DNA of 64,000 bases from Pseudovirgaria hyperparasitica (taxonomy: Eukaryota), in the NCBI GenBank assembly GCA_010093815.1, contig ML996581.1; one strand, written 5' to 3'. The notes beneath the pieces were generated by a model. That model had not been told where the DNA came from and did no database searches. It saw only the letters and a program-made list of their open reading frames with translations. The position numbers and the translations under genes are program-made. This document shows, in pieces, positions 12,711 to 56,917 of the stretch (its first letter is position 1; every line of letters begins with the position of its first letter).

Positions 12711-13119
12711 TCAAGCCAGAAACAGACTGCGCTACACCTAAGAGGTGTTTTTGCAGATCGCCCCTACCTGTATAGCACCACCCAGGACATATCCACGACG
12801 TATTGCTGGATATGCATAGGACTACCCCATCCTTTGACTTGCATCTGGAAAAAAAAGGCGTTTTGGAATTCAATCATGTTAATCATTTGCATAAAATTGC
12901 TAAGCGAGAAGGAAAGAAGAATCCGAAAGCGAAGGTCCATATCATCGACGGACTGGTCGGCCCTCGCGCTCGCGTCTTAATGTCCGTCTCTAATCGGGAA
13001 TGGAAGGAGGGGGGGAAGGGTGTTGGAGGGGTTTTATATTTCGCGATACGAAGAGGGAGCATCACTGAGGAAAGCTGGAAACATACCCAACACACGGACG
13101 CACACACACAAATACCATT

Positions 13120-13318
13120 CAGCCAGCCAGCCAGCCAGCCAGCCTTACTACTAGCAAGAGAGCCATTACGAAAAGAAAAGAAGCATGTACGGGAGTCTGT
13201 TTGTTTATGATCTTTCCGTCTTTGGGTAGCCCCATTTTTTTGTTCTTCTTCTTCTTTTCTGTCTCTCGCTTCACCTCTCACTTACTTCCTCAACAACGCA
13301 CACAGCAGCTCGAAAGCA

Positions 13319-13371
<53 letters not shown>

Positions 13372-14265
13372 GGGAAAGGGAAACCGGTCGTGCATGAAGC
13401 AACAACTCCTTGGTTGATCGAGGATATTCTGCTTGTTGAATGATTTGGTGGTGCGTGGGGTTTGCTCTGGCATGTTTAGCTTGTTGTTGTAGTTGTTGTT
13501 GTTGTTGTTGTCCCATCCATCATTGCGCCTTTTTTGCGTTGGTTGTGTGTGTTTTTGTCGTGTAGAGATGGGAAGAAGAATTGAGATGAGATGAGATGAG
13601 ATGAGATGAGATGAGATGAGATGAAAATGGGATGGGATGGAGACGAGAAATGAAAGATGAGAATGACCAATGAATGCAATGGAAGCTGCTGCTGCTGCTG
13701 CTGGTGGATGATATGATACCATATGGTGTGTGTTTGTGTGTTTGTGTGTTTGGTGTCTGTGTGTTTGTGTTTGTGTGTTTGGTGTTTGTGTGTGTCCCTT
13801 GGCTGCACTGCACTGCACGGACATGGGACCTGGACAACGGAGAAGATGGGAGAGATGAGTGGAGAAGACGGAAAGACGGAACCTATGGGGGGAAGTGGAG
13901 TGGAGTGGAGTGTAGGCGAATTGATGATGGATTCGCGGGCTTTTTGTTTGTTTTGCTCGCTGGGTGAATTGAAGCCTTTAGGGGGCGCTAGTCAGAGTCA
14001 GCGTTAGGGTTTAGGGTCTAGGGTCTAGGGTTGATTGGTTGGGTGTTTAGGTCAAAGTCAGGGTCAAGGTCAGGCAGGGTCAAATGCAAATGCAAATGCA
14101 AATTCAAAGTCAAAGTCAAAGTTTCAAAAAAAATTCAATGGTTCAACGGTTCACGTGCAGATCCCCGTATTTGAGATTTGAGATTGGAGATTGGAGATTG
14201 GAGATTGGAGATTGGAGATTTGAGATTTGAGATTTGAGATTTGAGATTGGAGATTCGAGATTTGA
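13120..14265. repeat. Microsatellite cluster between convergent LRG1 and NUFIP1-like 3' ends
   Basis: (AGCC)n at ~13121-13144 and ~13320-13370, (TTG)n at ~13480-13511, (GAGAT)n at ~13582-13623, GT-rich tract at ~13725-13795, (CAAATG)n and (TCAAAG)n at ~14080-14121, (GAGATTG/T)n at ~14172-14262. Confidence 0.95.
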
Positions 14266-14575
14266 AGAGTGTGATGGGAGGGGGTAGTGGTCTTGGGGTT
14301 ATGGGGTTATGTGGTTTCTTTTTGATAGGTTGGGCTGTCTCCTTATTCCTCTGGGACGATGCTTGCCTTCTTTCTTTCCTTCTTTCTCATCCCCTTATTA
14401 CTTCCCTTATCTATCGCCGTACATGCACGCATGCCATCCCATGCAAATTAAAGCCTCGGTCGGGGCCGGGCATGGAGATATATATATCCTGTGACGCTCT
14501 CTGATTATCATGCTATACTACACTACGCTATACTCTCTACCCAAACCCCCCGCCCCCCCCTTGGATGCCCCAAAC

Positions 14576-16756: not shown

Positions 16757-17690
16757 ATGTTTGTTCTTGTATGGAATAATTTCTTTACCGATATCTGCAA
16801 CACTTCTAGCTAAGACACAATTTTCAGACTTCGATATCCGATCTGATCCCGATTGATCCAAAAGATTTCACAAAGCCCACGCCTGATGCCATAAAGGACA
16901 ACATACATAGCAAATACTCAAACAAGGTAGAATATCCCGTCAATGTATCTGTACGATGGCTGATCAAAGCCCAGGTTCTACAACAAGTCGGCCTTTGCAT
17001 ATGCGTTTTCGATATAGAAAAGATCTCCGATGGCCTCATAGGTCACGGGTCTGGCATAGTATACGTGCATGGTATGCTCAATTATCGGGTTTCTTGCAAT
17101 ATCTGACTAAAGCAACCATTTAGTTGACTTTCGACTTTTGGTATTTCGACCATTCAAAGGTGAAATCCTTCAGGGGCGCATAATACGTAGCGACGAAAAT
17201 GCCATCAAAAGTAGGCACTCATCAGGTCGCGGCTCATGTATGCTGACAAACATTTAGTCGGCCTCGAATTCTTCGAAGATATTACCGCTCCTGCACCTAC
17301 TTCTCTTTTTGAGGACACAACATTGTACGCATCATTTTATGTACAGCTCGATTCTACAGCTAATTCTCTGCAGTGATGCGAAGGAATTGTCCTGGGTCTG
17401 GACACCAGAGGGAGGTGATGGCGAGCTCTACTTTGACTTGGGGGAAGTCATCCGTTTTCGCGTCGAATCCGAAGAGTGGCATGACCGATCACCCCAAGCC
17501 CCTGGATCTGAAGATTCTGGCAAGGATGATCAGCCACCTTATAGTTTGCTTGTTCGTATCACGATGGCGAGGCTCAATTGCAGTATGCTGACTCCATCAG
17601 GTATCAATGCAGCAATCAGGCCTTGGACTCACCATGTGGTGGGACGAAGAAAGGGCAGAGGAGGCGGAACAGAGCCACAGTCCCACATAG
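16757..17690 (+). CDS. RPC25: RNA polymerase III subunit Rpc25 (Rpb7 family), six introns
   Basis: Manual splicing gives MFVL|TSISDLIPIDPKDF...HSKYSNK|VLQQVGLCICVFDI..DGLIGHGSG..|VDFRLLVFRPFKGEIL..|..FFEDI..|..WVW...IRFRVESE...PYSLL|VSMQQSGLGLTMWW...TAG. All introns are GT..AG. Mostly missed by the ORF track. Confidence 0.92.
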
Positions 17691-20600
17691 CCGCACAAAG
17701 TGATGGCCACGGTTTGCATACGCTACGCACTCATCCTGCACATTTGTGTCATATCCTATGCATCTGTGCTTCTCTGTGTGAATAACAAGGCCCGGTGATA
17801 TACCTGCTAACTTGGCTTAGACACGCGGAGGGGGTTGGGTTGTTTTCACCATGAGCAACGAAGCTTGCAAGCTTGAGCGGAGACGAGTCATGCAGGTTTA
17901 AGCATGAAAATATGTACTATATACTTTGGCTGGACGAAGGAGGTCTAAGTATCTTCTTCTAGTTCTCGCATATCTCATTCTTTTCTCTCCATGATTCATC
18001 ATCGAATGAGTTCATTTGAAGCTCACTCCAACAAGTCAATCCTGAGTATTCTTCCGCGCGAACACATGCGGGTAGTTTTTTAGTGTTGGACAGGCAATGA
18101 ATTTTGAAGAGTTGGAGTCGCCGATGGCCAGACGCAGGACAGGAGTCATTCCGCTGTGATCGAAGCTCGTTACAGTAATTATTGCCTGATCAGGTTTAGT
18201 TGCTTACGGCAGGCCGAGGTATCTCCTGGTCATCATTCATTCAACGTCCATGCGCCTCTTACAGCCTCACCACGAGGCTTGGTCGCAGGGCGTAATATAT
18301 GCATCGCAATATGCGTAGTTCATCTCGGCTCATTTGTTGTATCTTGCCTTACGGTAAGGCTCCCCCACCACGAAGCAAGTATATCCAAGACCGGCCGTTT
18401 GCTCTGCTTCACGAAGCGATGTTCTGCATTGCAGAAAAGACGCAATATGACACCTTAATAGCCTACCTCTAAGACCCCACACAAGGATCAGAATTCGAGG
18501 CTCATTAGGTATGGATAGTTTGCCTCACTTTCCGCCTCACGATCTATCGCGTACCCATGATTATGGGATGTCCTGCCGAGAATCAACAGTTTGGTTCACC
18601 AGAAATCTTCCGGACGTCGAGGTCTTGTGGGCACTCGCATATCCTTTCAATGGCTCCAGACAAAAAATGTTAAGTTGCTACTTCCATCTCGGTATTCTAG
18701 CCGTACGCGAGCCTTTCATTGCAATACTCCTCTGATCAGTTCCATTACCCCTGCATCGAATTACCAAATTAGATACATGGCAATCCATGAAACTTCTCAC
18801 GCCACCAACGCCCTCTTTCGAAAGCTCGTGGCAACGTCCCACCTCTGCAACAACGAGGCTGATACCGGTACATATCTTCTGGTTTGGCCAACTGCTTCAA
18901 GTCCATAGGGCCTTTAGAGTGACGAGTGCCTCTCGAAGAAGCGCAATTTTCTAGATGTGTTGCTTCTCAGGTTCCGCAATTTAGGTACCACTTGGAAAAC
19001 TCGTTTGGACTCTGTCTTATCAAAGAAGATGAGATGATATTGTATGTTCAAGTCTGCCTCGTCCACTCTATTACAACGGTATCGAGCTAGACTTATATCG
19101 CCCGGCACCTCGTAGCCACTGGATTTCTCGCTCGCCCTATGGCTTGCAATTTTCAGACGGATGCGTGCGCTGGAAATTCAATGACAGTCTCCCATGACCA
19201 GACGATTGGCCCTCTCTAGCTGCCCTGGATTCACTGGTCTGGTTATGCACCTATTGCACCTGTTCTACCTGTCCAATTGTCTATATCTAGCTTCTCAAGG
19301 CTACTCCTTTCCCTTCTTCAAGTCTATTGTTAAGATTTCAACGCTATTCAATAGATATTGAGCAGCCTCACCAGTCCAGTCCACAGGATCCACATACCTA
19401 AAGTCTTACGCTCGTCACCGACCTAAGAAGCTTTCTATTCATTTGGTTATTCATATTCCAATCACTATCACCGGTAATTCATCTTCAGTCTACACAGCAC
19501 TTCCAACTTTGGTCATGGATTCCGCAGGTAAGGGCAAAATATCGCCGATTACTTTCTTCGACGCGCCAGTGTGAGTACAGTCAAGCGGGCATCCTAATCC
19601 ATCAACAGCAAAACATACGAATCTCGATACCACAGATTTGGTCATCTCCATAACCCTCCGTCAGGACCAGGCAGCTCGACTCAGAACTCCAGTATGTATT
19701 GGTACCTAATTTCCCGTTACACAGTATCTGAATACCGTTCTGCTCAAGAGGTTCAGTGGTCACACTGAGACTGGAAGAGTTAGCACGAGATTGATGAAGT
19801 ACTTAATTTGACCGTGCTGATCCTGCTCAAGCGGCCTTCTGTGAAAAGCTGCAAACCGGAATCAGCCCAGGCTCTCGACATAGATGCCACGAGATACGAA
19901 GAAGAGTCGGAAGAAATTCGAGAGTTGACTTACTTCATGGATTCCCTCCACAGCCATCGTCAAGACAATCAATCCACTGGATCTACCTGTCCACCTTCTT
20001 GTAACACTGCCCTGGCCTTAGGTGACCAAGCGAAGCCGCGTAGTCACAATCCATTGGTATCATTCCTCACTGGTTCGTACACAACTTACGATCGACTCAT
20101 GCAGTCAAAGCTCTCAACAGACTCGACAAGCAATGGTATACAGTGGTCTGCTCTGGAATTATCTACCAACAACGTTCTAGTTGACAGTACAAGACGATCG
20201 TCCCGTGTTCCACCCGGATCCCGTGAACATTAGATTAATTGCTGCCCATATATCCTATCACTTTTGCGCTCCTGGTAATTTTTCCTCTGCCCTTGCTTCG
20301 ATACCATTCCAAACAGTCTCATACCAATCTGGTCTTAAGCTAGTCATCTATGATATGCGATCAGTATGGACACCCTCGATCTTAGCAATAGCTTTACCTC
20401 TGCCGGTTTTAGCCTACTGGCGTTCCGCATGCCGGGCAGCATTTACCTGGGATTACCCAGACCGTGGATCCTTCACTCAAACATTTGGGACACTTTCGGC
20501 CAGGTACCTTTCGAATGGTCAGCTTGAATTTTCTCTAGAATATACTATCGTTTGTCAACATACAGTGTAGTCCGTCGGAGCAATATCAGCATTGATCTGC

Positions 20601-50582: not shown

Positions 50583-53500
50583 ATGTCGAATACAAGAGCT
50601 TCGTTGATGGTGCCGCGCCCGAATGCGGGAACGAAGCTGAGGCAGATAGAGCAGGCCAAAGAAATGCAACGAATTGTGGAGGAGCGTGCAGCTAGAACAT
50701 CGGTAGATCCCCCTCCGTACGACTTCTTACAGTTCATTGGCCGGGGTAGTTTCGGACGAGTGTATAAATGGTACGTCAAACCTGGCACAGTAGGCATAGC
50801 AGTAGCAAAAAGGCTGATCTTGCAGCAAACATCGTAACACGCAGGAAGTGGTGGCTGTCAAAATTACGGAAGTGGACGATGCCGATTACCAGGCCTATTT
50901 CGAAGATAAAGACAGGAGCTTGCCGGACTTGATTCGGGAGATCAAGGTCCTTCAGCAATTGAAAGAAACGAGAGCGTCACCCTACGTCAACGTTATCTAC
51001 GATGCATTTCCAATGTACTCTGAACTCTGGATGGTAACGGAGTACTGCCCAGGCGGTAGTGTCACGACATTGATGAAGCCCAACCCTGCAGGACAAGGGC
51101 TTGAAGAAAAGTATATCGTTGCGATCGCCCGGGAACTTGCAACTGCTTTGAAATACGTGCACGAAGCCAACGTTATACACAGAGACATCAAATGTGAGGA
51201 ATTTCACCCTTAATCCAACCATACTTGAACTAGATGCGCAGAACGTAGACTAAAAATCCATCGCAGGCGGGAATGTACTTATTACAGAAGATGGCAATCT
51301 TCAGCTTGGTGATTTCGGTGTGTCTGGAGTGCTCGAGACAGAAGTGGCAAAGCGGTCGACCATTGTTGGCACGCTACACTGGATGCCTCCAGAACTTCTT
51401 GGAGCAAACTTGAGTTCCAACTATAAATATCCGGTTGCCCCTCTTTATAGACATGAAGTCGATATTTGGGCATTTGGCTGTACAGTCTACGAAATGGCAA
51501 TGGGCCATGGTCCCATGAGCACCGCGAGGACCTTGCCAGAACTTGCCGCCACAGCGCAAGAGAGGCCGCCAAGGCTCGAGGGAGACAGATTCTCGGAAGG
51601 CCTCAAAAGCCTCGTAGCGTTTTGCATTGAAGCTAACCCCGAGGATCGCCCTACTGCCGATGCCATCCTTCAACATGACTATCTAAGAGATACATCCAGG
51701 AGTCACCCGACAAGTTCACTCAGGGAGCTGATTGAGCGCTATGTCATATGGGAGGCTTCTGGTGGTTCTAGGGCCTCTCTATTCAATCCGCAGATGGGCG
51801 CAGCCCACCCCGAGCTCCCACTACCACAGGATGACGATGATGAGGACTGGAGTTTCAGTATGTCTGATGAGTTGGATGACGAATATGCTATAAATCTTGA
51901 CGATGAGCCGACCACCAAAGCGGCTACGAAAGGCGTACTGAACACTGCTTTCAGTATGCCGAAGTCAAAGAAAGAACGAGAAAGCATGGTCAGAAGAGGA
52001 GGAGAAGGACTACAGAGGCTTTTTGATCCTGACTCAACGCCTTATATCTATGGTACGAGCGATCTAGCTCTCCGCCAATATGATACTGAAGGTGGTAACA
52101 ATCGTGAAACCATTATCGATCTAGACGATGTTGAACCGGCGTTCAATATGCCCACTCTTGATCTTGGAGATGTGCCCACACTACGGGCCAATCGACTGAA
52201 TAAAGAAGCCCTCGATCGCGTTATAGCCGAGTTGAAAGAGGAAGACGACATGGAGGCACGAAGTTTTGCAAGGAAGAGCATGCAGCAGGACAATGATTAT
52301 ACGAAACGCGCAACACGGGATTGGAAGTTTCCGTCCATGCTACCACCTGAGACATCGATTGCTCCTCCAGAAACAGACAATCGCCGTACCCAGGACTGGA
52401 CTTTTGCTAGTGCTATGCCAGCTGATAATCGTCGCACGCAAGACTGGACGTTCGCCAGTGCAATGGCCGAGGCAGATCCAGGACATGGGCAAGCACGAAA
52501 TAGGATGACCAGAGAGATTCAAACGCATCTATTGACTGCACCCGCGGCCGATATAGCCAACAACCGACGGACCAGGGATTTTGTGTTCCCATCTCAGGAC
52601 CCACCGGAAAATACTGAAACTGATGTAGTTGACTTTGTTGGGCCGCCCCAACCTCGTTATGAACACTCGGCTCGTGTAGAATTCCAGCGTCCGACACTTC
52701 GCCATGCCGCAACTCAGCCAACAAGCACTCCTGACGGAACCTTTGGTCAACAAATGTCGGTGTCAGACTCGCCTCCCCGTATGTCCATGATTGATCTTGA
52801 CTTTGCTCTCCCTACGGAATGGCAGCCTCGACCAGCGACGTCTGGCTCTGGGGGGGACGGGGCCCCCTTGGGTGTCGAATATGGACACAAAGACCCATTC
52901 GATTTGGAAGATCAGGTCCAGCTATCAGAATCGAACAATCGCCTGTCATTTCATACAAAATCCCAATCGGAACCTACTAAAGCGCTCCCTGGACTATTAA
53001 CGCCTAGCGATCAGCAGGCGGATGCAAAGCGAGGGTCAAAATACGGGGTCCATTCGCGAGGGACAAGCCAAGCCAACTTGCCTGTGGGACAACCCGCGAG
53101 GTTGATGAATCAACCTTCAAATCAACGGCGCTTTCGCCGCCGCCAATTTCGCCGTGAAGCGTCCTCTGTTAGTAGCAGGAGCTACACGTCTGCCTCCGAA
53201 ACGGAGCCTGAGGACGATTACGAGCGCGGTAGGCCTTCCTCTGTTCAGCCTGGCTTTCTTCAAAATTCTTTTTGGTCTAATTTCAACCCTGCTAATCGAA
53301 CGCCATCAGATTGGAATAAGAGCGTGCTTTCACGGTCGAATTCGATAGCCAGTAGAGGGGACATGAGCGGCATTGAGTCTGATGCAATGGATGACGACAG
53401 GTTTCATCCATTCAGGCAAGACCCAAATCCGTTTGGAGAAGACTGCATGTCACTCAATCCCGCCCTCTACACTACACCCCCGAACAACAATGCCCGAACG

Positions 53501-53782
53501 TCCGCAAACGCTTTTATCAACAACGTTCGGCCGACAGTCCCCTTCCCTCTCCCTACTGGCCCGCATCCAGAATCATTGAAGCATGATTCTGACCCGGACC
53601 TTGTCGAGCACGAGTTTCAACGTGTTTGCAAGGAGTTTCTGTATGGGCTCAAAGTCTGCAAAGACATTGTTGAGCATCGTCAAAGTGGGGTGTCCACTAG
53701 GGGTGGAACAGTGAGAATGAGCACGAGCGTACACGACGAGTACGCGGGCTTGAGTACCGATAGTGAAGGTATAGCCCTGTAA
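50583..53782 (+). CDS. KIC1: Ste20/GCK-family Ser/Thr kinase, Kic1/Nak1/POD6-like; introns 50771-50826, 51194-51266
   Basis: PPPYDFLQFIGRGSFGRVYK, VVAVK, HRDIKCGN, DFG, KRSTIVGTLHWMPPE and DIWAFG. The kinase domain is N-terminal with a long C-terminal tail. Confidence 0.8.
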
Positions 53783-54414
53783 GCTAGGTTTTTCAAAACA
53801 TGCATCGAGGAGGCGTTGTTGTCAACTTGCGGGATATGCTTTGATGGTGTGGACATGCATATGGAGGGCGCTGGAGTTCTGTATTTGGATCTGGACATTC
53901 GTATGGTTTTGGGGGAAGGGGGGCAAGGAAAATTTGCACTCTCACTCAAGGTACAGCAACTAAGGCCCTTGATATACTACTGATAGATCTAATGTATGTA
54001 AAGATATGCAAGAGCAACGTGGACGTGCAGCTTTGACGTCTTGCTGGGATTTCTATGACTTTTTTATAGCCATCATTTCCGCTCGTGTTGTTCGTTACTT
54101 TCGGGTTGTGACTGTCCTAGGTCAAGGCTCTTACCATGCATGTTTCGTCGATTTCCGACCAGCTAGGTGGGGCGCAGGACAGCTAGTGTTGCTTTTGTTA
54201 TGTCGGAGTGATTCGTATCGAGTTGCAGAACTTAACGACCGATAACCAGTAGTAAGGTAGGTAGTTTACCCTGCCCGGGAGGCCTTTCGTCCAGCATGCA
54301 TCGATTTGAATGTTCCCAAAACTGAAATATTCTACTGCGAAAGACAGCGCACCCACCCACAAGCCTTGTAGTCTTGTTACGTGATGAGCAACGGCATACT
54401 ATATTATATATACA

Positions 54415-55085
54415 GTAATCAAAACGACATTAGCCCGGCCTGTAAAGCTAGCTGTTTGGCGTTCTGCGATGTAGTAGAATTTAGATCTACAGTGAAACGA
54501 GAGCCGTTTCACATATATTTATTATTATATATACGAAATCTCAAGTTATGTGATAGAATTCAGGTTTGATGAAACACGATACCGGTCGGTCCTTACGGAG
54601 GAGATGGGTAACAAAATCGGGTTTTCTCAAATTAGATCGACTGGGTTATGTAAATATAATATACACTATATCCATGTCGTTATATGACAAAATTGTGTGA
54701 CAAATGACACCGGTCCGGTCTGTTCGACTTCTTTCTACTAAGTTATGACGTAGTTGTGTGACAAAAATAGAAATTAATGTTCAACGAGACCGCTTCATCT
54801 AGTAATCTATATGCCTATTTGATCGATGGGATTGATCGACGTACTAGAACTATATATAATTAATGTAAAACGATACTGGTCTAAAAGGCTTTGTTAAATT
54901 GATGTGACAAAACCATATTATTGTAAAACAACACCGTTCCACATGTGATAAAGTTAGAAAATTAAAACTTAATGCAAAACGACACCGGTCCACATGTGAC
55001 CAATATCAGGAATTAAAAATTAATACAGAATGACACTGGTCCGTCCACATGTAACCAATATCAGGAATTGAAAATTAATGCAAAA
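54415..55085 (-). repeat. Degenerate tandem array of tRNA-3'-end/terminator/trailer units (~51-58 bp near the tRNA, longer and more diverged distally)
   Basis: The plus-strand core TTAATGCAAAACGACACCGGT recurs at 55075, 55020, 54969 (exact), 54918, 54860, 54774, ~54694 and ~54566, and weakly at ~54490 and ~54416. Confidence 0.88.
55070..55085 (-). terminator. Pol III oligo-T terminator of tRNA-Arg
   Basis: TTTTGCATTAATTTTC immediately follows the tRNA 3' end on the minus strand. Confidence 0.7.
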
Positions 55086-55157
55086 CGACACCGGTGGGAC
55101 TCGAACCCACAGCCTCAGCCTTAGGAGGGCTGCGCGCTGCCATTGCGCCACGGTGCC
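55086..55157 (-). tRNA. tRNA-Arg(CCT), 72 nt, intronless
   Basis: GGCACCG TGGCGCAATGGCAGCGCG CAGCC CTCCTAA GGCTG AGGCT GTGGG TTCGAGT CCCAC CGGTGTC G folds as a cloverleaf with anticodon CCT and A/B boxes. Confidence 0.95.
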
Positions 55158-55360
55158 GCCAAGCCATAACAGTCGTGTGATAGGGAAAATATGACTGTCA
55201 GATTGGGGGGAGGAAAATGCAATGCGTCACGTGCCGACGTGACCGGGGCTTCATCGTACGAAGAGGACAGCTTGCATGATGGCCATGACGCCGTATATGA
55301 CTCGCCTCGCTGGGTGCAGCCTAAACCTCAAATGCAATCTACCTCGCGAACCTACATTTC

Positions 55361-56917
55361 ATGATGGTGAACACAGCTATCGTCACGGCGCTCGCTGCTG
55401 GAGCCCTTCTGAGCACTCCTGTTTCCGGAGCTATCTACCTTAAGAGCTCCCCAGTACTCCAACTAGAAAATGCGAAAGCCTATGACAGACTGATTGCGCA
55501 GTCCAATTACACTTCTGTAAGATGTATTATCGCTGTCCGAAGCTTTATGCTAACTTTTGTGTCCAGATTGTCGAGTAAGTGCCGTGCATGTCTACCTCGA
55601 TTCTACCGGTCCCTTACGATGAATGCTAGGTTCTACGCCCCCTGGTGTGGCCATTGCCAGAATCTGAAGCCAGCATATGAAAAGGCTGCGAAGAACCTTG
55701 CTGGCCTGGCCAAAGTGGCGGCCATGAACTGTGATGAGGAGGCGAACAAGCCGTTCTGCGGCCAGATGGGCGTTCAAGGCTTCCCCACCTTGAAGATTGT
55801 CCGACCAGGCAAGAAAGCAGGAAGACCAACTGTGGAAGACTACCAGGGCCCGAGGTCTGCCAAGGGTATTGTAGATGCTGTCGTGGACAAGATCCCAAAC
55901 CATGTCCAGCGCATAACAGACAAGAATCTGGACGGGTTCTTGGAGGGAGATCACCCGAAGGCTATTCTGTTTAGTGATAAGGGACCGATTAGTGCGCTAC
56001 TGAGGTCACTGGCGATCGACTATCTAGGGACTGTGTCGTTTGCACAGATCCGCAATTCGCAGGAAAAGGCTGTCAAGCAGTTTAATGTGGAGAATTTTCC
56101 AACCCTGGTACTACTTCCTGGCGATGGCAAAGAGCCCGCCGTATACGATGGGGCCATGAAGAAGGAGGGGATGGCAAAGTTCCTCGCACAGGTCGCAGAG
56201 CCCAATCCAGATCCGGCGCCCAAACCATCAAAGAAAGACAAAAAGCCACAGGATAAGAAGGAGAAGCCGAAGGAATCAGCATCGTCCATTACCCTCGAGG
56301 ATGAAGCTATCCCGACAGAGGCTACAGATCCAGAGACATTGGAAGACGTCAACAAGCAGAAGCCAGTCAAGGTTGACAGCGGGCCACCTATGCTTGAGAT
56401 GCTCGAACATGCGCCGGCACTGGAAGAAAAATGCATGCTTCACAACTCAGGATCTTGTCTGCTCGCTCTGTTGCCACAAAAACCTCTGGACAATCCGGAT
56501 GCTGTACTCGACGAACAATCTCGCACGGCCCTAGCTTCGCTTGGAGAAGTCCAACATAAGCACACTGGCCGCATCTTCCCGTTCTACGCCGTCCCAGCCA
56601 TCAACACAGCTGGAATCCGACTTCGAGGCGGGGTTGGCTTAGACAAAGATGAGAAGCGCATTGAGATTGTTGTCATCAACGCTAAGCGTAACTGGTACCG
56701 TCATTTCCCGGGCGATGATTTTGGAACTATTGCAATTGAAGAGTGGATTGATCAGATCAGGATGGGTGAAGGTAAGAAAGAACGACTACCCACTGGGCTT
56801 ATTCCCGACGCACCGGAAGAAATGACTTCTCCGGAGGAACCCGTGGTTGAAGAGACTATCGTCGAGGAGGAAACTGTCATTGATGTTGGGAATGAGGGAA
56901 CCCATGATGAGCTGTAA
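55361..56917 (+). CDS. MPD1: Protein disulfide isomerase-related protein Mpd1/PrpA; introns 55517-55566 and 55575-55629 flanking an 8-nt exon
   Basis: Signal peptide, [37 protein letters not shown], a single active Trx domain and C-terminal HDEL. Confidence 0.88.

Follow-up and report, generated by a model that had tools for sequence, protein, structure and literature searches.

A tandem array of tRNA 3'-end, terminator and trailer copies downstream of a tRNA-Arg(CCT) gene in the fungus Pseudovirgaria hyperparasitica

The repeat array behind the tRNA gene

The tRNA-Arg(CCT) gene described here is found on the minus strand of contig ML996581.1 of Pseudovirgaria hyperparasitica (GenBank assembly GCA_010093815.1), between a protein-kinase gene and a gene encoding a PDIA6/MPD1-like protein disulfide isomerase (PDI). 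It is the sole tRNA gene of the window, the term used below for the whole analysed stretch of 64,000 nucleotides (nt). Directly downstream of the gene, its own 3' end, terminator and trailer recur in tandem, forming eight firm units and two doubtful ones, which are numbered U1 to U10 from the tRNA and listed in Table 1. The whole study concerns one locus of one assembly, read within the 64-kb window.

ARAGORN assigns minus-strand positions 55085-55158 to the tRNA-Arg(CCT) gene. When the Rfam bounds are used and the acceptor stem is paired by hand, its 3' terminus reads ...CCCACCGGTGTCG and is directly followed by TTTT, and this T4, located immediately past the discriminator, is all there is of the primary RNA polymerase III (Pol III) terminator. 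The last 10 nt of the gene, which are exactly ACCGGTGTCG with the Rfam bounds (55086-55095), take in the last two bases of the T-stem, then the 3' acceptor strand with the discriminator, and form the core of unit U1. Each repeat unit is built by a 25-nt head, which contains the last 10 nt of the tRNA, TTTT and about 11 nt of trailer (ACCGGTGTCG TTTT GCATTAATTTT), and by a tail that follows it. All copies have the same orientation, on the minus strand, and are located downstream of the tRNA.

Matches to the 10-mer with up to two mismatches are found on the minus strand at 55095, 55040, 54989, 54938, 54880, 54794, 54714 and 54586, so the units are spaced by 55, 51, 51, 58, 86, 80 and 128 bp. An initial annotation, made from the sequence alone, had reported identical spacings, its plus-strand starts being these minus-strand coordinates minus 20, and had proposed that the tRNA end, TTTT and the trailer recur behind this gene. 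This is confirmed by seven core copies in the 676 nt downstream of the tRNA, where 0.22 are expected from the remainder of the window (Poisson P = 4e-9). The 14-mer formed by the core and TTTT, ACCGGTGTCGTTTT, has 13 matches in the window with up to three mismatches, a number that 0 of 100 shuffles reach (shuffle mean 4.0), and seven of these matches are in the array, all of them on the minus strand.

The distal units also stand out from the background. The heads of U4 to U8 match the U1 head at 18-21 of 25 positions, and none of 126,150 background 25-mers from both strands of the window reaches 17/25. The earlier count of about 8-10 copies is a fair one, since eight units are individually beyond background and U9 and U10 are doubtful. 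A head-like 25-mer is found nowhere else in the 64-kb window, so within these limits the unit is not a dispersed repeat, and the array is the only complex minisatellite of the window, the other tandem repeats being microsatellites and one GT-rich 45-mer. TRF detects the three proximal units only, with a period of 51/55 and 76-82% matches. An nhmmer profile made from U1-U3 recovers these training members with E-values of 4e-13 to 6.5e-15, and U5, U8, U6, U7 and U4 are among its eight best non-training matches in the window; their individual E-values are weak (0.2-8), and each of these matches begins at profile position 1-3.

A second submotif, which had been noticed in the spacers as TGTGAC/TGTGAT, is confirmed as RTCACAY on the sense strand of the array, where it occurs six times against 0.14 expected (P = 1e-8). 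It is present once per unit in six of the eight units, always after the head of the unit; U1 has the variant GTTACAT in its place and U5 lacks this block. Two Logan assemblies (X1 and X2) contain a 2-kb stretch of the locus in one piece with 0 differences, which makes an assembler artefact unlikely, and since X1 and X2 may be the source sample they do not count as support from an independent strain.

Table 1. Coordinates of the tRNA gene, the repeat units, the hairpins and the neighbouring genes in the window
Feature	Coordinates	Strand	Details
tRNA-Arg(CCT)	55086..55157	minus	Rfam RF00005, 68.2 bits, model positions 1-71 of 71
U1, 55 nt	55041..55095	minus	head tRNA end + TTTTGCATTAATTTT; tail CAATTCCTGATATTGGTTACATGTGGACGG; nhmmer E = 6.5e-15 (training member)
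U2, 51 nt	54990..55040	minus	head 21/25, 4 transitions relative to U1; tail near-identical to U1 (z 13.8)
U3, 51 nt	54939..54989	minus	head 24/25 relative to U1, including a 21-nt exact run; tail differs at 10/26
U4, 58 nt	54881..54938	minus	head 19/25; tail has TTTTGTCACAT, related to U6 tail (z 3.2)
U5, 86 nt	54795..54880	minus	head 21/25; tail block AAYCCMRTCGATCWAAT in common with U7 (z 3.4)
U6, 80 nt	54715..54794	minus	head 19/25
U7, 128 nt	54587..54714	minus	head 18/25; aligned head about 9 nt shorter past the core than the others
U8, 78 nt	54509..54586	minus	head 18/25; last unit individually beyond background
U9/U10, doubtful distal remnants	54410..54508	minus	heads 10/25 and 14/25
Hairpin, U2 tail/U3 head	54980..55008	minus	arms TGATATTGGTC and GACCGGTGTCG, loop ACATGTG, then TTTT
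Sister hairpin, U1 tail/U2 head	55031..55063	minus	arms TGATATTGGTT and GACCAGTGTCA, 11-nt loop, then TTCT
Protein-kinase gene (convergent neighbour)	51320..54030	plus	Pfam Pkinase match
PDIA6/MPD1-like PDI gene (divergent neighbour)	55289..56917	plus	Pfam matches

Anatomy of the units

U1, U2 and U3 are homologous from end to end, as seen in the alignment of their tails (z 13.8 for U1 and U2, z 4.5 for U2 and U3). One of the four transitions in the head of U2 interrupts its T-run (TTCT). U4 to U8 keep their heads at 72-84% identity, and their tails are barely alignable to that of U1 (z 0.3-1.0). These five units keep the head (18-21/25) and, with the exception of U5, the RTCACAY block in the same order, and it is the 25-nt head together with this block that bears out the earlier suggestion of homology beyond the tRNA-derived core.

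The tails of U4 and U6 are related to each other (z 3.2), as are those of U5 and U7 (z 3.4); for the cross pairs the z scores are 0.0-1.4, and U4+U5 aligned globally to U6+U7 has z 3.9. This ABAB pairing of the U4-U7 tails points to the duplication of a two-unit block.

The two most distal units are the doubtful ones. The head of U9, which would start at 54508, is not significant in ungapped alignment, and a likeness to the head of U6 is seen by eye only with one indel. U10, which would start at 54434, contains an exact TGTCGTTTTG at 54420-54429. Only three exact copies of this 10-mer exist on both strands of the window, and they are in U1, U3 and U10.

The possibility that the array is a series of decayed whole tRNA genes was rejected, because the non-core parts of the 10 units align with the tRNA body at shuffle level (z -1.7 to 1.7); since no unit exceeds the 10-nt core of the tRNA, the array is not made of whole tRNA genes. 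Over the array region no Rfam family reaches its gathering score except the tRNA, and the only other match is a chance-level one of 20 nt to a CRISPR-repeat model at the far edge (E 0.83). Four open reading frames (ORFs) beginning with ATG overlap the array region, with 30-61 amino acids each, and the spacers between cores or heads, which have 26-103 nt, are without coding capacity of note. The stretch GGTCACGTCGGCACGTGACGCATTGCATT on the upstream side of the tRNA (about 55215-55245), considered as a possible further unit, was also discarded, as its local score of 12 is equalled by 39 of 2083 background windows; the nhmmer profile gives no match to it at E-values up to 20.

Divergence gradient, mosaic units and decay

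The heads of U2 to U8 have, in this order, 4, 1, 6, 4, 6, 7 and 7 mismatches to the head of U1, so divergence rises with the distance from the tRNA (Spearman rho 0.84; exact permutation test, 56/5040, p = 0.011). Unit length likewise grows with distance (rho 0.75). The initial annotation had described the array as an age-ordered log growing from the tRNA end. The divergence gradient which this description implies is present, but a strict order is not, since the units are mosaic.

The head of U3 is nearer to that of U1 than the head of U2 is, while the tail of U3 is far more diverged: relative to U1, U3 differs at 1 of 25 head positions and at 10 of 26 tail positions (Fisher p = 0.0048), and U2 shows the opposite trend, with 4 of 25 in the head and 2 of 26 in the tail. 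Strict addition of units at the tRNA end predicts U2 to be the closest to U1 everywhere, so exchange between units or short-tract conversion of heads is needed. Mosaic units of this kind would be expected from exchange or conversion and not from serial addition. The distal copies are also not simply eroded, as had been supposed, given that the most distal remnant, U10, retains a perfect 10-mer.

The 10-nt cores of U2 to U8 contain 10 substitutions, all of them at G or C. Eight change GC to AT and seven are transitions, five of which are, in our own reading of the listed positions, transitions at the two CpG sites. This spectrum looks like the neutral decay of unconstrained, possibly methylated, repeated DNA, and gives no sign of a core conserved for binding or pairing.

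Hairpins and T-runs

The tails of U1 and U2 contain TGATATTGGT(T/C), which can pair with GACC(A/G)GTGTC(A/G) in the next head. A scan for terminator-like structures found the hairpin at the U2/U3 junction, and the two resulting hairpins have 11 of 11 pairs each (P < 0.001 against 1000 shuffles in both cases). The hairpin at the U2/U3 junction includes four G.U pairs and has predicted energies of -13.1 kcal/mol in the sense and -4.8 kcal/mol in the antisense orientation, while its sister at the U1/U2 junction, whose downstream T-run is broken, has -12.1 and -3.5 kcal/mol, respectively. Both hairpins appear in the minimum-free-energy RNA fold of the tRNA with U1-U3, which has a z score of -2.4 that comes mostly from the tRNA and the hairpins themselves. 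The junctions before the heads of U4 to U8 have 7-8 of 11 pairs, which is shuffle level, so the hairpin has effectively a single origin and was duplicated once.

The 5' arm of the hairpin corresponds to the core in reverse complement, and wherever the two differ a C has become a T, which gives a G.U pair in RNA. Four of the five C's of this arm read T (five of five in the U1 copy) and three of three G's are intact; such a one-strand pattern could come from deamination of an exposed strand as well as from the tolerance of G.U pairs in RNA. Selection on the hairpin was considered on the basis of differences between the copies that preserve pairing (three of three), and these are no evidence for it, because they are expected for transitions in a G.U-rich stem. 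A cruciform or hairpin at the DNA level was rejected as a driver, the single-strand DNA fold of U1-U3 having a z score of -0.15.

Stacked T-runs are indeed present behind the tRNA, as first proposed. Over the 676 nt, the sense strand contains 14 T-runs of at least T4 (T4-T5) against one A-run of at least A4. One of the 14 T-runs lies directly behind a hairpin.

Genomic context and controls

Both neighbouring genes are on the plus strand and the tRNA gene is on the minus strand, so it is transcribed away from the PDI gene and converges with the kinase gene. In the kinase gene, the last long ORF extends from 51320 to 53782, and contigs of spliced type (runs X3 and X4) stop at 54030; Pol III read-through from the tRNA gene would go antisense toward the 3' end of this gene. 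Contigs of the PDI gene start at 55289 and 55315, the interval 54031-55288 being uncovered in X3 and X4, and the gene contains an intron at about 55517-55629 with a GT..AG joint at 55516/55630. Its protein is a 100% match to a thioredoxin-domain protein of P. hyperparasitica, a dothideomycete, in a public collection; the next-best relatives are 52-70% identical, so the protein is without a close relative in that collection.

In the runs X3 and X4, position 55516 is joined to 55630 with 113 nt skipped (GT..AG) and 8 other letters between both sides. This may reflect a micro-exon of 8 nt flanked by two short introns of the PDI gene, or else alternative splicing; in the micro-exon case 113 - 8 = 105 and the long ORF stays in frame. 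The 5' flank of the tRNA contains, between the tRNA and the PDI transcript start, GGTCACGTCGGCACGTGACG (55210-55250, minus strand), with two CACGTG-like E/G-box motifs. Its loose likeness to a junction of two units does not exceed chance, 39 of 2083 background windows having an equally high score.

The remaining content of the window is housekeeping genes. A scan of the 17 longest stop-to-stop ORFs, of the 52 in the window, assigned 14 to ordinary families and three to none, and no recombinase or transposase was found among these 17. One ORF at 17258-17785 on the plus strand has a Pfam match to the RNA polymerase III subunit Rpc25 (E 2e-9); it is about 37 kb from the tRNA gene, and this proximity is probably a coincidence. 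Two intergenic stretches, 680-1760 and 13100-14270, are unusually rich in assorted micro- and short minisatellites, for example TGTA x11, TATG x13, TTTGG x18, CAGC x13 and ATTTGAG x14.

A metagenome scan with a 29-mer of the tRNA found 0 loci. A 22-mer that extends from the T-arm to the 3' end found 12 loci, none of which is a fungal tRNA-Arg(CCT) gene; ARAGORN identifies four as tRNA-Ser genes from AT-rich organisms and makes no call at the remaining eight, which are unrelated. Neither scan gave a relative of the present locus. No array is present at any of the 12 loci: 10 have no core copy (with up to two mismatches) within 700 nt downstream, and the other two have a single distant one. These loci are a weak control only, from which it follows that the 22-nt sequence does not by itself breed repeats. 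One metagenomic contig (L010, 1501-1522, plus strand, GC 0.52) has the same 22-mer followed by TATTTTTGC and no tRNA found by ARAGORN, and may hold an intron-containing or divergent eukaryotic tRNA gene.

Origin of the array

The array is probably a degenerate minisatellite, which would have arisen by local tandem duplication at the tRNA 3' boundary and later passed through expansion, conversion and neutral decay. The anatomy, the statistics, the mosaicism and the decay spectrum are described above as observed, and we infer from the sequence the duplication mechanism, the gene conversion and any effect on termination. Repeated duplication at the Pol III terminator was one of two origins suggested in the initial annotation, and it is favoured here on the homology of the units and on the mosaic and block patterns.

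The founding event would be a tandem duplication with one breakpoint on the left, following T-stem position 63 and thus 10 nt within the tRNA, and another on the right, some 45 nt along the trailer; it would leave the gene intact and produce a partial copy with the tRNA end, T4 and trailer. Expansion to 8-10 units could then proceed by replication slippage and unequal sister-chromatid exchange, including at least one event in which a block of two units was duplicated. Selection on the tRNA itself would keep the copy within the gene constant, and short-tract conversion from this copy would keep the nearby heads alike, while the distal units would accumulate GC-to-AT substitutions, together with indels in the AT-rich tails. 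The apparent polarity of the array may be explained by homogenised inner units and eroded edge units, as the edge at the tRNA cannot erode and can donate conversion tracts. By analogy with yeast, where tRNA genes are sites of fork pausing, R-loops and recombination, the tRNA gene itself may have been the seed; one paper (PMC5413955) describes, in its accessible part, how replication forks pause at yeast tRNA genes, with DNA damage and recombination between direct repeats at these sites.

A stack of terminators is a likely by-product of these duplications, again by analogy with yeast. Pol III passing the weak T4 would meet further T4/T5 runs, one of them right behind an acceptor-stem-like hairpin, and the stack would limit antisense transcription into the convergent kinase gene. 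According to the accessible text of a preprint on budding yeast (bioRxiv 10.1101/2021.08.27.457903), T4 is a weak terminator, release is better when an RNA hairpin lies no more than 7 nt upstream, and the acceptor stem may account for primary T4 terminators. Read-through of yeast tRNA genes, with functional terminators far downstream, is reported in the part available of another study (PMC4937561).

Several points weigh against an origin by local duplication and decay. Every unit has an identical left boundary in the tRNA, as a site-specific process would give. A perfect 10-mer persists in the most distal remnant, contrary to a simple gradient, and the distal heads are 72-84% identical while their tails are near-unalignable, a contrast that is not expected if whole units simply decayed neutrally; conversion plus indels in the tails could account for it. 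The 5' arm of the hairpin could mean selection at the RNA level, or an inverted template switch that has since decayed. In addition, the evidence comes from a single locus of a single assembly, and the literature on fork pausing and termination concerns yeasts and not this fungal class.

Alternative readings

The T-runs and hairpins could also be the object of selection and not a by-product. The array would then be a fail-safe stack of Pol III terminators, in which T-runs, accompanied in the young units by a hairpin that mimics the acceptor stem, release the read-through polymerase and protect the kinase gene, and trailer-derived small RNAs may result. This reading is unlikely, although part of what it predicts is found. 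T-runs of at least T4 on the non-template strand continue past a primary terminator which is T4 only, 14 of them against one A-run over 676 nt, and two sense-specific hairpins with 11 of 11 pairs (P < 0.001) are present, one directly before TTTT. In yeast, as far as the accessible texts go, a hairpin within 7 nt upstream aids release at T4 (bioRxiv 10.1101/2021.08.27.457903) and functional terminators lie far behind tRNA genes (PMC4937561). Both the fail-safe terminators of yeast and the array stack their T-runs within a few hundred nt of a primary terminator that is weak; the array additionally has two modules with a hairpin upstream of the T-run, one of these T-runs being broken (TTCT), and consists of serial copies of the terminator and tRNA end, whereas the yeast backup terminators, in the sources as available, are unrelated T-tracts in unstructured sequence. 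Selection for termination is opposed by the restriction of the hairpin to the two youngest junctions, one being a copy of the other, with the junctions before U4-U8 at shuffle level, and by the broken T-run of U2. The core substitutions resemble neutral GC-to-AT decay, most T-runs are common by descent and so are not independent, and a copy of the acceptor strand is itself unneeded for a terminator.

The other origin suggested in the initial annotation, scars of integration and excision, did not gain positive support, given the short spacers, the absence of a recombinase among the scanned ORFs and the full-length homology of the young units. It would involve recurrent site-specific integration at the tRNA 3' end, for example by a tyrosine-recombinase element that was later lost, each insertion pushing the old tRNA end distally and leaving duplicates of the head in age order. 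The direct repetition of the tRNA 3' end, always with an identical boundary on the left, would fit such a history, as would the gradient of divergence from proximal to distal units and, in U4-U8, the variable unit lengths (58-128 nt) and the much better conservation of the heads than of the sequence between them. The junction TGATATTGGTC-ACATGTG-GACCGGTGTCG is also shaped like two inverted arms around a 7-bp spacer; as double-stranded DNA, however, the arms match at 7/11 positions. Starships, elements of the same fungal subphylum, target 5S rDNA, a Pol III gene, with direct repeats of 6-16 bp according to the accessible part of one paper (PMC11162782), but the targets named there and in the available text of a second paper (PMC9156397) are 5S rDNA and AT-rich sites, with no tRNA target, and the latter text mentions tRNA solely as a bacterial analogy.

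Other features make integration scars quite improbable. Identity confined to a crossover segment, as in attachment-site (att) scars, is not seen in U1-U3, whose tails are homologous along their full length (z 13.8 and 4.5), though the tails of U4-U8 are mostly unalignable. No element DNA is present between the units, where the spacers have 26-103 nt and the ORFs only 30-61 amino acids, and no recombinase or transposase is among the 17 longest ORFs scanned of the 52. The ABAB blocks and the U1/U3 mosaic suit exchange better than serial insertion, and there is no other copy of the head in the 64 kb. The tandem accretion of elements at bacterial and archaeal tRNA genes is similar to the array in that the tRNA 3' end is present in several direct copies, the older ones farther away; the array differs in having no element DNA between the copies, homology over whole units and a fungus as host.

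It is also possible to imagine the array as the output of a recurrent process specific for tRNA genes of this fungal lineage, in which direct and inverted, wobble-paired modules of the tRNA end are made at the Pol III terminator, each with an acceptor-stem mimic followed by a T-run. Such modules could come from template switching at a stalled fork or from a small non-autonomous element. There is little likelihood that this is what happened; if true, tRNA-tailored modules would be found behind many tRNA genes, acting on read-through transcripts by termination, processing or small RNAs.

Finally, the heads and the TGTGAY blocks would hardly be repeated cis-regulatory sites of the PDI gene, about 200-900 bp away, that is, binding sites of a factor which happen to resemble the tRNA end: the array does precede the start of the PDI transcript, which is at 55289 or lower, and two short blocks are kept while the spacers drift, but the core is identical to the tRNA end and runs on into the trailer, which shows descent by duplication and not convergence, GC-to-AT decay affects all but 2 of the 10 substituted core sites, all of them G or C, and the weak look-alike on the upstream side of the tRNA does not exceed chance (39/2083 background windows). 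To our knowledge, the core of the array matches no fungal transcription-factor motif, although no motif library was searched.

Relation to known systems

Among the systems compared, the closest analogue of the array is the 178-bp repeats of the tyrT/tyrV type in Escherichia coli. The initial annotation had mentioned repeats of a tRNA 3' end in bacteria, and the K-12 record, which was checked directly, bears this out at tyrV: three copies with 178-bp spacing and 95% identity, annotated rttR/tpr, are located behind the gene, and the last one overlaps the final 19 nt of tyrV. As in the array, the copies are in tandem, on the same strand and directly behind the tRNA, and the units include the tRNA 3' end, of which 10 nt are copied per unit in the array and 19 in E. 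coli K-12. In E. coli the repeats belong to a bacterial operon and their 178-bp units are near-identical; a small RNA, RttR, and an ORF of 29 amino acids are annotated there, while the array belongs to a eukaryotic nuclear Pol III gene and has units of 51-128 bp, strong distal decay and no ORF of note.

The array is also similar to a minisatellite, or variable number tandem repeat. It is arranged head to tail with homology over whole units, it contains two-unit blocks, mosaics and an eroded free edge, and signs of unequal exchange or conversion are present in the mosaic of U3 (Fisher p = 0.0048), in the block alignment (z 3.9) and in the paired tails (z 3.2 and 3.4). Unlike in usual minisatellites, one edge of the array is anchored in a selected gene and the far edge alone erodes. 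Variation of copy number from strain to strain is the usual hallmark of minisatellites.

In the literature searched, from which subscription journals are mostly absent and which is therefore weak evidence of absence, no such array is described behind a fungal or other eukaryotic nuclear tRNA gene. The same literature holds no fungal element that integrates at tRNA genes, nor do the accessible parts of the two Starship papers. The array is most likely a minisatellite, or a tRNA-distal repeat of the tyrT type, in a eukaryotic Pol III setting, and not a new genetic device.

Biological meaning

The interest of the array is modest and local, and it would be greater if other tRNA genes of this fungus or of related fungi are alike, or if an element uses the 25-nt head as its attachment site. 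If the origin by local duplication at the tRNA 3' boundary is true, the array records, cleanly and in nature, how the genome was unstable at a eukaryotic tRNA gene, with a breakpoint inside the 3' end of the gene, later expansion, and the selected gene copy as the donor of conversion. It would also be a natural case of a primary Pol III terminator that was copied into a stack of back-up terminators.

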